Shown piece after piece: positions 3,728 through 55,546 of a stretch of DNA of 64,000 bases. The stretch lies in NCBI RefSeq assembly GCF_003334315.1, contig NZ_QOWR01000005.1. The stretch is one strand, 5' to 3'. The DNA comes from Escherichia coli (GTDB taxonomy: Bacteria > Pseudomonadota > Gammaproteobacteria > Enterobacterales > Enterobacteriaceae). Below the pieces are notes generated by a model. The model saw nothing but the letters and a program-made list of their open reading frames with translations, did not search any database and was not told where the DNA came from. Position 1 is the stretch's first letter. Each line of letters opens with the position of its first letter. A program made the translations under genes and the position numbers.

Positions 3728-3808
3728 GGCCTGATAAGACGCGTGAGCGTCGCATCAGGCATCGTTCACCATTGCCGGATGCGGCGTGAACGCCTTATCC
3801 GGCCTACG
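3728..3808. repeat. REP (repetitive extragenic palindrome) pair between convergent ypfH and ypfN
   Basis: gcctgataagacgc...gcgtcgcatcaggc and gccggatgcggcgtgaacgccttatccggcctac palindromic units. Confidence 0.8.
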
Positions 3809-47396: not shown

Positions 47397-48229
47397 TGTT
47401 TGCAGTTTCATCAAGACGCGTGCTTCCGGGCTTTACCTTAAGCCTCGGCACCAGTCTGCTGTTTGTTTGCCTGATTTTGCTCCTGCCACTCTCCGCGCTG
47501 GTGATGCAGCTGGCCCAGATGAGCTGGGCGCAGTACTGGGAGGTGATCACCAACCCGCAGGTGGTCGCAGCCTACAAAGTGACGCTGCTGTCGGCGTTTG
47601 TGGCATCGATTTTTAACGGCGTTTTCGGTCTGCTGATGGCGTGGATCTTAACTCGTTATCGCTTCCCTGGCCGCACGCTGCTTGATGCGCTGATGGATTT
47701 ACCCTTTGCGCTGCCAACGGCAGTCGCCGGTTTAACGCTGGCCTCGCTCTTTTCCGTGAACGGTTTTTACGGTGAATGGCTGGCGAAGTTTGATATCAAA
47801 GTCACCTACACCTGGCTTGGGATTGCGGTGGCGATGGCCTTTACCAGCATTCCGTTTGTGGTGCGTACCGTGCAGCCGGTGCTGGAAGAGTTAGGCCCGG
47901 AATATGAAGAAGCGGCGGAAACGCTTGGTGCAACGCGCTGGCAGAGTTTCTGCAAAGTGGTGCTGCCGGAACTTTCTCCGGCGCTGGTGGCGGGTGTGGC
48001 GTTGTCGTTTACCCGTAGTCTTGGTGAGTTTGGCGCGGTGATATTTATCGCCGGGAACATCGCCTGGAAGACGGAAGTGACGTCGCTGATGATTTTTGTG
48101 CGCTTGCAGGAGTTTGATTACCCGGCGGCGAGCGCGATTGCTTCGGTGATCCTCGCGGCATCTCTGCTGCTGCTGTTCTCAATTAACACTCTGCAAAGTC
48201 GCTTTGGTCGGCGTGTGGTAGGTCATTAA
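47396..48229 (+). CDS. cysU: Sulfate/thiosulfate ABC permease CysU (CysT)
   Basis: 277 aa; TAATG overlap with cysP. Confidence 0.92.
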   Translation: MFAVSSRRVLPGFTLSLGTSLLFVCLILLLPLSALVMQLAQMSWAQYWEVITNPQVVAAYKVTLLSAFVASIFNGVFGLLMAWILTRYRFPGRTLLDALMDLPFALPTAVAGLTLASLFSVNGFYGEWLAKFDIKVTYTWLGIAVAMAFTSIPFVVRTVQPVLEELGPEYEEAAETLGATRWQSFCKVVLPELSPALVAGVALSFTRSLGEFGAVIFIAGNIAWKTEVTSLMIFVRLQEFDYPAASAIASVILAASLLLLFSINTLQSRFGRRVVGH

Positions 48230-49104
48230 TGGCGGAAGTTACCCAATTGAAGCGTTATGACGCGCGCCCGATTAACTGGGGCAAATGGTTTCTAATTGGC
48301 ATCGGGATGCTGGTTTCGGCGTTCATCCTGCTGGTGCCGATGATTTATATCTTCGTACAGGCGTTCAGCAAAGGGCTGATGCCGGTTTTACAGAATCTGG
48401 CCGATCCGGATATGCTGCACGCCATCTGGCTGACGGTGATGATCGCGCTGATTGCCGTACCGGTAAACCTGGTGTTCGGCATTCTGCTGGCCTGGCTGGT
48501 GACGCGCTTTAACTTCCCTGGACGCCAGTTACTGCTGACGCTACTGGACATTCCGTTTGCCGTATCGCCGGTGGTTGCCGGTCTGGTGTATCTGCTGTTC
48601 TACGGCTCTAACGGCCCGCTGGGCGGTTGGCTGGATGAACATAATCTGCAAATTATGTTCTCCTGGCCGGGAATGGTGCTGGTCACCATCTTCGTGACGT
48701 GTCCGTTTGTGGTGCGCGAACTGGTGCCGGTGATGTTAAGCCAGGGCAGTCAGGAAGACGAGGCGGCGATTTTGCTTGGCGCGTCTGGCTGGCAGATGTT
48801 CCGTCGTGTCACATTGCCGAACATCCGCTGGGCGCTGCTTTATGGCGTAGTGCTGACCAACGCCCGCGCGATTGGCGAGTTTGGCGCGGTGTCGGTGGTT
48901 TCCGGCTCGATTCGCGGCGAAACACTTTCGCTGCCGTTACAGATTGAATTGCTGGAGCAGGACTACAACACCGTCGGCTCCTTTACTGCCGCCGCGCTGT
49001 TGACGCTGATGGCGATTATCACCCTGTTTTTAAAGAGTATGTTGCAGTGGCGCCTGGAGAATCAGGAAAAACGCGCGCAGCAGGAGGAACATCATGAGCA
49101 TTGA
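48229..49104 (+). CDS. cysW: Sulfate/thiosulfate ABC permease CysW
   Basis: 291 aa; TAATG overlap with cysU. Confidence 0.92.
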
Positions 49105-50191
49105 GATTGCCAATATTAAGAAGTCTTTTGGTCGCACCCAGGTGCTGAACGATATCTCACTGGATATTCCTTCAGGTCAGATGGCCGCGTTGCTGGGGCC
49201 GTCCGGTTCCGGGAAAACCACGCTGCTGCGCATTATCGCCGGGCTGGAGCATCAAACCAGCGGGCATATTCGCTTCCACGGCACCGACGTGAGCCGCCTG
49301 CACGCGCGCGATCGTAAAGTCGGTTTCGTGTTCCAGCATTACGCGCTGTTCCGCCATATGACGGTATTCGACAATATCGCTTTTGGCCTGACGGTGCTGC
49401 CGCGTCGCGAGCGCCCGAATGCCACAGCCATCAAAGCGAAAGTGACAAAATTGCTGGAAATGATCCAGCTTGCGCATCTGGCGGATCGTTATCCGGCGCA
49501 GCTTTCCGGCGGCCAGAAACAGCGTGTGGCGCTGGCGCGCGCGCTGGCTGTAGAACCGCAAATTCTGCTGCTTGATGAACCGTTTGGCGCGCTGGATGCG
49601 CAGGTGCGTAAAGAGCTGCGTCGCTGGCTGCGTCAACTGCATGAAGAGCTGAAATTCACCAGCGTGTTTGTGACCCACGACCAGGAAGAGGCGACCGAAG
49701 TAGCCGATCGTGTAGTGGTGATGAGTCAGGGGAATATTGAACAGGCTGATGCGCCGAATCAGGTATGGCGCGAACCAGCGACCCGTTTTGTACTCGAATT
49801 TATGGGCGAAGTGAACCGCCTGCAGGGAACCATTCGCGGCGGGCAGTTCCATGTTGGCGCACATCGCTGGCCGCTGGGCTACACACCTGCTTATCAGGGG
49901 CCGGTGGATCTCTTCCTGCGCCCGTGGGAAGTGGATATCAGCCGCCGTACCAGTCTCGATTCGCCGCTGCCGGTACAGGTACTGGAAGCCAGCCCGAAAG
50001 GTCACTACACCCAATTAGTGGTGCAGCCGCTGGGGTGGTACAACGAACCGCTGACGGTCGTGATGCATGGCGACGATGCCCCGCAGCGTGGCGAGCGTTT
50101 ATTCGTTGGTCTGCAACATGCGCGGCTGTATAACGGCGACGAGCGTATCGAAACCCGCGATGAGGAACTTGCTCTCGCACAAAGCGCCTGA
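49094..50191 (+). CDS. cysA: Sulfate/thiosulfate ABC transporter ATPase CysA
   Basis: 365 aa; Walker [10 protein letters not shown], signature LSGGQKQR, Walker B LLLDEPF; overlaps cysW by 11 nt. Confidence 0.93.
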
Positions 50192-50212
50192 TAGGTTGAG
50201 TGAATGTTAAAC

Positions 50213-50301
50213 GCCCGGAGGCGCTTCCCGCGATCCGGGCTTTTTAATGGCAAGGTTTGTAACCTGTAGACCTGATAAGACGCGCAAGCGTCGCATCAGG
50301 C
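50213..50301 (+). terminator. Terminator-like hairpin plus REP between cysA and cysM
   Basis: cccgga...tccggg stem followed by cttttta (about 50213-50245); REP gtagacctgataagacgcgcaagcgtcgcatcaggc (about 50265-50301). Confidence 0.6.
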
Positions 50302-50324
50302 AACACCACGTATGGATAGAGATC

Positions 50325-51236
50325 GTGAGTACATTAGAACAAACAATAGGCAATACGCCTCTGGTGAAGTTGCAGCGAATGGGGCCGGATAACGGCAGTG
50401 AAGTGTGGTTAAAACTGGAAGGCAATAACCCGGCAGGTTCGGTGAAAGATCGTGCGGCACTTTCGATGATCGTCGAGGCGGAAAAGCGCGGGGAAATTAA
50501 ACCGGGTGATGTCTTAATCGAAGCCACCAGTGGTAACACCGGCATTGCGCTGGCAATGATTGCCGCGCTGAAAGGCTATCGCATGAAATTGCTGATGCCC
50601 GACAACATGAGCCAGGAACGCCGTGCGGCGATGCGTGCTTATGGTGCGGAACTGATTCTTGTCACCAAAGAGCAGGGCATGGAAGGTGCGCGCGATCTGG
50701 CGCTGGAGATGGCGAATCGTGGCGAAGGAAAGCTGCTCGATCAGTTTAATAATCCCGATAACCCTTACGCCCATTACACCACTACCGGGCCGGAAATCTG
50801 GCAGCAAACCGGCGGGCGCATTACCCATTTTGTCTCCAGCATGGGAACAACCGGCACTATCACCGGCGTTTCACGCTTTATGCGCGAACAATCCAAACCA
50901 GTAACGATTGTTGGCCTGCAGCCGGAAGAAGGCAGCAGTATTCCCGGCATTCGCCGCTGGCCTGCGGAATATCTGCCGGGGATTTTCAACGCTTCTCTGG
51001 TGGATGAGGTGCTGGATATTCATCAGCGCGATGCAGAAAACACCATGCGCGAACTGGCAGTGCGGGAAGGAATATTCTGTGGCGTCAGCTCCGGCGGCGC
51101 GGTTGCCGGAGCACTGCGGGTGGCAAAAGCTAACCCTGGTGCGGTGGTGGTAGCGATCATCTGCGATCGTGGCGATCGCTACCTTTCCACCGGGGTGTTT
51201 GGGGAAGAGCATTTTAGCCAGGGGGCGGGGATTTAA
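50325..51236 (+). CDS. cysM: Cysteine synthase B (O-acetylserine sulfhydrylase B)
   Basis: 303 aa from GTG 50325 (MSTLEQTIGNTPLVKL...); PLP lysine motif SVKDR; ORF track extends 26 codons upstream. Confidence 0.9.
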   Translation: MSTLEQTIGNTPLVKLQRMGPDNGSEVWLKLEGNNPAGSVKDRAALSMIVEAEKRGEIKPGDVLIEATSGNTGIALAMIAALKGYRMKLLMPDNMSQERRAAMRAYGAELILVTKEQGMEGARDLALEMANRGEGKLLDQFNNPDNPYAHYTTTGPEIWQQTGGRITHFVSSMGTTGTITGVSRFMREQSKPVTIVGLQPEEGSSIPGIRRWPAEYLPGIFNASLVDEVLDIHQRDAENTMRELAVREGIFCGVSSGGAVAGALRVAKANPGAVVVAIICDRGDRYLSTGVFGEEHFSQGAGI

Positions 51237-51238
51237 GA

Positions 51239-51607
51239 TTATTGCGCAGGCACCGTTTTATCCGTCTGCGCAATTAGCGCATGTAAAAAAGGCTGTGCGT
51301 TCTCATCGCTCTTACCGGGGATCTTCACAATATACGGCTTCCCGGTAATCGATGACGACGAAGCAACCTTATCAATAAACTGCTCGGCAGTGTCAATGCG
51401 GTTACGGGTATTGCCGAGCTTCAGACGCAGATGAGAAACCGCTTCATAGCAGGTATGTTCATCACCGTTGCGCACAAATATCAAATCCTTTTTCTGTGCT
51501 AATCCCTCCAGCATGGCGTTGATGCGGGCTTCTTCATGGGCAGTTAACTTCGCGTAAACGGGGAGTGTCATTAGTAGTGTAATGACCAGACAAATGATTT
51601 TCTTCAT
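51239..51607 (-). CDS. yfeK: Secreted protein YfeK
   Basis: 122 aa; signal peptide ([19 protein letters not shown]); stop 2 bp from the convergent cysM stop. Confidence 0.75.
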
Positions 51608-51632
51608 TGAATTACCTTATCCTTGTTTTGTG

Positions 51633-51675
<43 letters not shown>

Positions 51676-51711
51676 TTACGATGAGGATCATCGGCAAGGA
51701 GAAAAAATTAA

Positions 51712-52563
51712 ATGAGTAGTTTGTTGTTGTTTAACGATAAGAGTAGGGCACTGCAGGCGGATATCGTCGCCGTGCAGTCGCAGGTGGTTTACGGCAGCGT
51801 GGGCAACAGCATTGCCGTGCCTGCTATCAAACAGAACGGCCTGAATGTCTTTGCCGTGCCGACGGTATTGCTGAGCAATACGCCGCATTATGACACTTTC
51901 TACGGTGGTGCGATTCCGGACGAATGGTTTAGCGGCTATTTGCGTGCGCTTCAGGAGCGTGATGCGCTGCGCCAACTTCGTGCTGTAACCACGGGCTATA
52001 TGGGAACGGCATCGCAAATCAAAATCCTTGCCGAGTGGCTGACTGCGCTACGCAAAGACCATCCTGACCTATTGATCATGGTCGATCCGGTGATTGGCGA
52101 TATTGATAGCGGAATTTATGTCAAACCTGACCTTCCCGAAGCGTATCGACAATATTTACTGCCGCTGGCGCAGGGAATTACCCCCAATATCTTTGAGTTG
52201 GAAATCCTGACCGGTAAAAATTGCCGCGATCTCGACAGTGCCATTGCTGCCGCAAAAAGTCTGCTTTCAGACACATTAAAATGGGTGGTGGTTACCAGCG
52301 CCTCCGGTAATGAAGAAAATCAGGAGATGCAGGTTGTGGTGGTCACTGCCGACAGCGTGAATGTCATTTCCCATTCACGGGTAAAAACCGACCTGAAAGG
52401 GACTGGCGACCTGTTTTGTGCTCAGCTCATCAGTGGCTTGCTGAAAGGGAAGGCGTTAACCGATGCAGTGCACCGAGCGGGGTTGCGCGTACTGGAAGTG
52501 ATGCGCTACACCCAGCAGCATGAGAGCGATGAATTGATTTTGCCGCCGCTGGCGGAAGCATAA
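51712..52563 (+). CDS. pdxK: Pyridoxine/pyridoxal/pyridoxamine kinase
   Basis: 283 aa; ribokinase-superfamily PdxK sequence. Confidence 0.9.
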
Positions 52564-52594
52564 AAAAATGGCGCCGATGGGCGCCATTTTTCAC
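52562..52594. terminator. Bidirectional Rho-independent terminator between convergent pdxK and crr
   Basis: aaaaaaa-tggcgcc-gatg-ggcgcca-ttttt. Confidence 0.85.
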
Positions 52595-55517: not shown

Positions 55518-55546
55518 CAAAAAAGCACCTAAAAAGGTGCTTTTTT
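55518..55546 (-). terminator. cysK Rho-independent terminator (bidirectional geometry)
   Basis: aaaaaa-gcacc-taaaaa-ggtgc-tttttt just downstream of the cysK stop. Confidence 0.8.

Follow-up and report, generated by a model that had tools for sequence, protein, structure and literature searches.

Several E. coli operons carry an internal attenuating terminator, examples being T1, between rpsU and dnaG in the rpsU-dnaG-rpoD operon, and the attenuator between rplL and rpoB. REP elements between genes have been given two further roles. The intercistronic REP between malE and malF reportedly stabilises the mRNA, a finding credited to Newbury, Higgins and co-workers in 1987, and Espeli et al. are said to have described, in 2001, transcription attenuation associated with BIMEs.

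Here we analyse the spacer between cysA and cysM of the cysPUWAM operon in a stretch of E. coli DNA of 64,000 nucleotides (contig NZ_QOWR01000005.1), referred to as the window, and find that it resembles each of these systems in part. As in rpsU-T1-dnaG and rplL-rpoB, a hairpin with a U-tract lies between genes that would be co-transcribed, with the downstream gene predicted to be lowered, and cysM shares poor start signals with dnaG, in its case a GTG codon and a weak Shine-Dalgarno sequence. It differs from these internal attenuators in that the stem contains an internal loop and is followed by five Us, and in that its termination is a prediction, absent from the one table of RNA 3' ends that was checked by coordinate. 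The likeness to malE-malF lies in an intercistronic REP that forms a stable mRNA hairpin downstream of genes expected to be the more highly expressed. In contrast to malE-malF, the cysA-cysM spacer has one REP and not a pair. A distinct hairpin of terminator-like form precedes this REP, which was inserted recently and only in Escherichia, the hairpin being the conserved part. With BIME-associated attenuation the locus shares repeated palindromes between co-directional genes, which would lower downstream transcription and which are paired in Enterobacter, Pluralibacter and related genera. In E. coli, however, the spacer holds a single REP and no BIME, and the candidate for attenuation is the unique hairpin with its T-run.

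A 901-nt segment around the cysA-cysM junction is 100% identical to that of E. coli strain 120899 and is found in 5426 of 5426 complete E. coli genomes. The gene order that RefSeq annotates for the matching locus is ucpA, cysP, cysT (cysU), cysW, cysA, cysM, yfeK (minus strand) and pdxK, and the features considered below are listed in Table 1. A reading made earlier from the sequence alone had described tightly overlapping transporter genes, followed by a GC-rich hairpin, a T-run and a REP between cysA and a cysM that starts at GTG. Each of these elements is where that reading had put it, and the ORF list gives overlaps of 1 nt (cysP/cysU), 1 nt (cysU/cysW) and 11 nt (cysW/cysA). The spacer spans 133 nt (50192-50324), and the CysM protein of 303 amino acids encoded from the GTG agrees with the RefSeq annotation of the identical E. 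coli sequence. The same spacer of 133 nt is present in K-12, on the minus strand, and x in window coordinates becomes 2589908 - x in those of K-12. The codon that follows the cysA stop is TAG, TAA or TAT in most of the Enterobacterales spacers that we extracted.

Table 1. Positions of genes and sequence elements around the cysA-cysM spacer (window coordinates)
Feature	Position	Strand	Basis
cysP	46380-47396	+	ORF list and RefSeq annotation of the matching E. coli locus
cysU (cysT)	47396-48229	+	ORF list and RefSeq; 1-nt overlap with cysP
cysW	48229-49104	+	ORF list and RefSeq; 1-nt overlap with cysU
cysA	49094-50191	+	ORF list and RefSeq; 11-nt overlap with cysW
cysA stop TGA (50189-50191) and following in-frame TAG (tandem stops)	50189-50194	+	Sequence
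GC-rich hairpin GCCCGGA-ggcgcttcccgcga-TCCGGGC, in full GCCCGGAggcgcttcccgcgaTCCGGGC	50213-50240	+	Sequence, fold
T-run TTTTTAAT, abutting the stem	50241-50248	+	Sequence
65-nt Escherichia-specific insertion carrying the REP	50251-50315	+	Spacer comparison
Single REP, presumably Z2-type, imperfect palindrome	~50265-50302	- (consensus orientation)	Fold, copy count
cysM translation start region, weak Shine-Dalgarno, GTG at 50325	50305-50327	+	Anti-SD pairing
cysM, cysteine synthase B (O-acetylserine sulfhydrylase B)	50325-51236	+	ORF list and RefSeq

The hairpin begins 21 nt past the cysA stop codon and is composed of a 7-bp outer stem (GCCCGGA/TCCGGGC, with six G-C pairs), a small internal loop, three inner pairs and a 5-nt loop. 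Its folding energy is -17.7 kcal/mol alone and -20.4 kcal/mol together with the flanking A- and U-rich arms (z = -2.7), a value that 2 of 200 shuffled sequences equalled. Both hallmarks of an intrinsic terminator, a GC-rich stem-loop and a U-tract directly 3' of the stem on the sense strand only, are present; the opposite strand of the hairpin reads GTTTAACA, with no T-run. Both strands of the window were searched for single hairpins with a T-rich tail directly behind them, and each was given a d'Aubenton-Carafa score. The hairpin ranks fifth (d = 14.6) among 521 terminator-like candidates, of which only 12 reach a d above 0. Ranked next to it are genuine terminators at operon ends, namely the bidirectional pdxK/crr terminator at 52569-52586 and the cysK terminator at 55525-55540, the latter agreeing in sequence with a 3' end that Adams et al. 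2021 report from Term-seq. It is missing from a simple terminator scan because that scan takes only loops of up to 8 nt. The 71-nt segment carrying the hairpin occurs once per genome, with an identity of at least 95%, in all 5426 E. coli genomes. Variants within the species are few, namely a T to A change in the loop and a C to T change of the last stem base; the latter, seen in some E. coli strains and in E. albertii, keeps the stem through a G-U pair and lengthens the T-run to six Ts.

Given these features, we hypothesized that the hairpin and T-run (50213-50248) form a leaky intrinsic, Rho-independent terminator within cysPUWAM, which, together with the GTG codon and weak Shine-Dalgarno sequence of cysM, sets CysM below the transporter proteins. 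On balance we regard this reading as probable, if only just. RNA polymerase coming from the cysP promoter would meet the hairpin and U-tract 22-57 nt past the cysA stop codon. A fraction of the polymerases would stop there and release a cysPUWA mRNA ending in a protective 3' hairpin, while the remaining ones would read through into cysM. On the read-through RNA, cysM would be poorly translated from its GTG codon and weak Shine-Dalgarno sequence, so that the net outcome would be a fixed step-down of CysM relative to the transporter. By analogy with malE-malF, the REP hairpin on this RNA would probably form a second barrier to 3'->5' exonucleases and favour survival of the upstream part. Both the occurrence of termination at the hairpin and the fraction of polymerases that stop there are what we infer from the sequence; owing to the internal loop in the stem and a U-tract of five Us followed by AA, the efficiency may be low.

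To place the spacer in a wider context, we compared it across Enterobacterales. A scan of species-representative genomes with CysM yielded 80 loci, with Salmonella and Klebsiella not among them, and cysA lies directly upstream of cysM in about 60 of the Enterobacterales loci. Spacers were cut from the cysA stop to the cysM start, and a hairpin was counted if its dG was -8 kcal/mol or lower and a T-run followed it directly. Among the 58 spacers of up to 400 nt, which come from related species and are not independent observations, 52 carry such a hairpin and T-run on the sense strand, compared with 3 of 58 for the reverse complement and 88 of 1160 (7.6%) for mononucleotide-shuffled spacers. Several of the six misses lie near the threshold, as in Serratia oryzae (aaggcaaccctggggttgcc followed by ttttgaca).

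The hairpins fall into about 20 unrelated sequence classes. Cedecea, Shimwellia and Siccibacter share GCGGCC-loop-GGCCGC, Serratia has AGGCAACCC-GGGTTGCCT, Pantoea and Mixta have GGGCGGG-CCCGCCC, Photorhabdus has GCTCATCTC-GAGATGAGC, and Yersinia has GGTGGCC-GCCACC. The E. coli hairpin occupies the position of the single Citrobacter hairpin cgcccggtggcgctacgcttaccgggctttttt, and in Enterobacter, Pluralibacter and related genera this palindrome is found as an inverted pair with CCTAC tails, the second copy being followed by the T-run. Judging from their form, the Citrobacter and Enterobacter palindromes appear REP-like, and part of the conservation pattern of the hairpin could reflect where REPs tend to settle. 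Covariation was also sought in the Escherichia, Citrobacter and Enterobacter hairpins; their outer stem GCCCGG/CCGGGC is invariant and says nothing either way, and for this reason the turnover of whole hairpins between lineages is used as evidence instead.

The position of the hairpin is kept more widely than its sequence. In many lineages it lies a fairly constant 20-30 nt past the upstream stop codon, and the nucleotides in between are not conserved from family to family. In most Enterobacteriaceae, 17-25 nt separate the T-run from the GTG codon. A promoter cannot fit into this distance, and polymerase must therefore pass the hairpin to make any RNA that encodes CysM. In Photorhabdus, Rouxiella, Hafnia and Proteus the hairpin is 50-114 nt from the cysM start and the T-run still abuts it. 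The T-run thus tracks the hairpin and not the start codon, which argues for termination over a function at the ribosome site.

In addition to the hairpin, cysM has conserved weak initiation signals, as judged from sequence. Of 60 loci, 58 start cysM with GTG, two with TTG and none with ATG. The pairing energy with the anti-SD sequence, calculated for the 20 nt upstream, is -3.1 kcal/mol in E. coli, with a median of -3.7 kcal/mol over 59 species; elsewhere in the window it is -10.3 for cysA, -8.5 for pdxK and -5.1 to -6.2 for cysP, cysU and cysW. An alternative start was considered at the ATG at 50247, just past the T-run, from which, both here and in K-12, the cysM frame stays open across the REP to give a 329-aa ORF. 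An N-terminal extension of CysM from this codon was rejected, as the frame is broken by a 1-nt indel in other E. coli strains, no Shine-Dalgarno sequence precedes the ATG, and the segment is absent from relatives. In the predicted fold of the spacer (50309-50327), a CACG motif of the REP-carrying insert pairs with the CGTG that includes the cysM start codon, by which the insertion may slightly mask the start.

The REP has a history of its own. The palindrome itself lies at 50271-50300 and carries a CTACAG-type tail, and it is presumably of the Z2 type. It folds with -19.4 kcal/mol on the plus (mRNA) strand and -21.3 kcal/mol on the minus strand (z about -4.7). Every one of the 5426 E. coli genomes has matches, with at least 40 places per genome in 5245 records (median at least 40), so that this is a sequence with many dispersed copies. 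The hairpin is single-copy and the REP is dispersed, and the two elements thus differ in kind; both are far beyond chance. A second Z2-type REP, with 2 mismatches over 31 positions, lies at 3730-3760 of the window, in a REP cluster (3730-3800) where it is followed by a Y-type REP (gccggatgcggcgtgaacgccttatcc…).

According to the spacer comparison, the REP came in later, and only in Escherichia, at a point between the T-run and the ribosome site of cysM. The inserted segment is bordered by ATGG direct repeats (50247-50250 and 50312-50315). When it is removed in silico, a 68-nt spacer results that equals the 67-68-nt Citrobacter spacers in length and layout, and its last 23 nt, gggctttttaatggatagagatc (gggctttttaatggatagagatcGTG), differ at two positions from those of 'Escherichia sp. 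ESNIH1'. The insertion site is common to E. coli, E. albertii and one Pseudocitrobacter genome. The sequence-only reading had treated hairpin and REP as parts of one module; the comparison instead separates a conserved hairpin from a REP that arrived downstream of it later and in Escherichia only. One REP is present here in E. coli and E. albertii, which falls short of the two or more inverted REPs of a BIME; REP pairs are present in the Pseudocitrobacter locus and in several Enterobacter-type spacers. In Pseudocitrobacter faecalis DSM 27453 (positions 1401-1571 of locus L005) the site holds a cluster of two REPs, one Y-like and one Z2-like. The CysM protein of this locus (98% identity) and its spacer are E. 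coli-like, with an identical hairpin, and the two-REP cluster could reflect REP turnover at one site or horizontal transfer.

Rfam naRNA4 (RF02564), a nucleoid-associated RNA derived from REP325, matches the spacer REP in part (model positions 44-76; 34.1 bits against a gathering score of 59.5). Only one REP unit of the model is covered, and the spacer REP is not a member of that family. The copy of the K-12 record that was examined contains no repeat features, not even at the site of RIP1, which we take to be an annotated REP-type repeat in K-12; its silence is uninformative.

Published RNA 3' ends bear directly on the efficiency of the putative terminator. The curated Term-seq tables of Adams et al. 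2021, which cover LB at OD 0.4, LB at OD 2.0 and M63 glucose, list no 3' end in K-12 2539500-2539799, a range that covers the whole spacer, and have no entry for cysA or cysM. This argues against an efficient terminator; as only strong peaks enter the tables and expression of the operon in LB is weak, the absence is a weak negative. The supplements of TRS and SMRT-Cappable-seq, in which gene names and coordinates may follow other conventions, gave no match for cysA, cysM or coordinates beginning 25395 or 25396, and those of TERMITe gave none for cysA, cysM, b2421 or b2422. Among the papers searched, none mentions cysPUWAM together with a terminator, or cysA and cysM together with a REP. The suggestion in the sequence-only reading that cysM could be uncoupled or attenuated at this spacer is thus carried by the terminator-grade score, the conservation in 52 of 58 spacers and the weak cysM start, whereas the 3' end that it would lead one to expect at the spacer does not appear in the thresholded tables of Adams et al. 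2021. The same study reports a strong Rho-dependent termination region at K-12 2543521 on the minus strand (score 17, p = 6e-46). This position corresponds to about window 46387, 7 nt into cysP, and hints that in rich medium transcription of the entire operon is ended early.

That Term-seq lists no sharp peak at the U-tract would also fit a purely post-transcriptional explanation, in which polymerase does not stop and, once an endonuclease has cut within cysM, the hairpin and REP hold up the 3'->5' exonucleases PNPase and RNase II, so that the cysPUWA segment outlives cysM in the manner reported for the malE-malF REP. On the mRNA strand the hairpin (-17.7 to -20.4 kcal/mol) and the REP (-19.4 kcal/mol) both fold stably. 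According to the literature, transcripts that contain a REP are stabilised in a way that depends on RhlB and PNPase, and REP-dependent mRNA stability has been described (PMC10100675). However, an exonuclease barrier needs no T-run, yet a T-run on the sense strand only accompanies unrelated stems in 52 of 58 spacers. Furthermore, processed 3' ends would be expected in Term-seq at a stable barrier and none are listed, and the REP is confined to Escherichia. We consider this explanation unlikely, while giving it more weight than those that follow.

The papers on this locus disagree: some give cysPUWA and cysM as distinct operons, and others treat cysPUWAM as one. An lsrR mutant showed a roughly ninefold rise of cysUWA with no change in cysM or cysP, so cysM did not track cysUWA. 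We count the disagreement and this expression difference as hints of uncoupling that speak for the leaky terminator. Both the separate naming and the expression difference would also be accommodated if the hairpin were an efficient terminator of cysPUWA and cysM were transcribed from its own promoter. Against this, a consensus scan of the plus strand found no sigma-70-like promoter in 48416-52000, and thus no candidate in the spacer or at the end of cysA. Moreover, with 17-25 nt between T-run and GTG in most relatives, a promoter upstream of the hairpin would still need read-through. A methionine producer strain was also designed as PtrcF-cysPUWAM, with cysM driven from a promoter upstream of cysP, and is described as overexpressing cysM, a claim that presumes read-through and in this sense hints at it. 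Taken together, these points make separate transcription units improbable.

We attach similarly little credence to the view that the spacer elements are without function, the hairpin being a decayed REP-like palindrome or a leftover ancestral cysPUWA terminator and the REP a selfish insertion. The REP is clearly mobile and lineage-specific, the hairpin looks like the REP-type palindromes found in Citrobacter and Enterobacter, and the spacer has taken other insertions, namely IS200C in strain AST205 and longer inserts in Yersinia and Serratia. A neutral relic should decay, though, whereas a hairpin with a T-run persists or is replaced, in about 20 classes across the order, and the hairpin structure is invariant in 5426 E. 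coli genomes.

These other insertions can be described as follows. In E. coli AST205 (locus L083), an IS200C copy occupies positions 1555-2265, with tnpA at 1698-2156, and lies right after the TTTTT of the hairpin. The insertion point corresponds to 50245/50246 of the window, and the hairpin is set about 700 nt from the REP and cysM. The longer spacers of Serratia plymuthica (L053, ~2300-2470) and Yersinia (L035 and L040, ~2300-2450) contain an insert of about 130-150 nt with the shared sequence …gcgctccg(a/g)cgg…ccg(c/t)tacgaccc…cggcac…, and in the S. plymuthica locus the hairpin aggcaaccccagggttgcct stands on both sides of it. The insert is possibly a small mobile repeat with the hairpin as its target.

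Loci in which cysM is not preceded by cysA raise the question of whether the hairpin belongs to cysM. In one Pectobacterium locus (L063), cysP, cysU and cysW are followed directly by cysM, with no cysA, and a hairpin and T-run precede the GTG codon; in a second one (L061) no obvious hairpin with T-run is seen before cysM. Hairpin, T-run and GTG also recur where the gene upstream of cysM encodes a Dyp-type peroxidase (two Dickeya loci) or is a rhamnosidase-like ORF of 787 aa (Kluyvera and strain RIT691). Hairpin, U-tract, leader poor in Shine-Dalgarno sequence and non-ATG start could then form one conserved cysM module that travels with cysM, the U-tract serving, besides its part as terminator tail, as a single-stranded landing site for ribosomal protein S1 on the read-through RNA and read-through perhaps being conditional. 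If this were true, conditional read-through would set the amount of the thiosulfate-pathway enzyme per transporter. The hairpins in loci without cysA may simply be terminators of whichever gene sits upstream, and we find the module doubtful.

Least credible of all is a conditional attenuator, with read-through set by sulfur status, by a protein or small RNA, or by the distance of the ribosome on cysA behind the polymerase: the fairly constant 20-30 nt from the upstream stop in many lineages and the behaviour of cysM, unlike cysUWA, in one transcriptome would agree with it, but the hairpin stays in both the MFE and centroid folds with 110 nt of upstream context, in which neither antiterminator pairing nor an exclusive antiterminator fold is predicted, this longer region folds no better than shuffles (z = 0.11), the sequence between stop and hairpin is unconserved across families, and no Rfam family, and hence no known aptamer, reaches its gathering score in the E. 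coli spacer, which has only the sub-threshold REP-type match, or in 20 related loci, which have none.

A leaky terminator, if this preferred reading is true, would account for the disagreement among papers over placing cysM in the cysPUWA operon, and would explain how less cysteine synthase B than transporter could be made from one promoter. It would add a comparative example of an intra-operon terminator whose shape and position are kept across an order while its sequence turns over, next to a conserved non-ATG start. It would also matter in practice to strain engineers who place cysPUWAM under a synthetic promoter and count on cysM being expressed along with the rest. As far as the sequence allows us to judge, the cysA-cysM hairpin would represent ordinary operon fine-tuning, of a familiar kind and at a well-studied locus, and would leave general principles unchanged.

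The region downstream of cysM also differs between the window strain and K-12. In K-12, a Rho termination region lies downstream of cysM and antisense to yfeS (Adams et al. 2021). The window strain is without yfeS and without a two-REP cluster, both of which are found downstream of cysM in K-12. In the window, the stop codons of cysM (51236) and of yfeK on the minus strand (51239) are 2 nt apart; no terminator fits between them, so cysM transcription must run antisense into yfeK.
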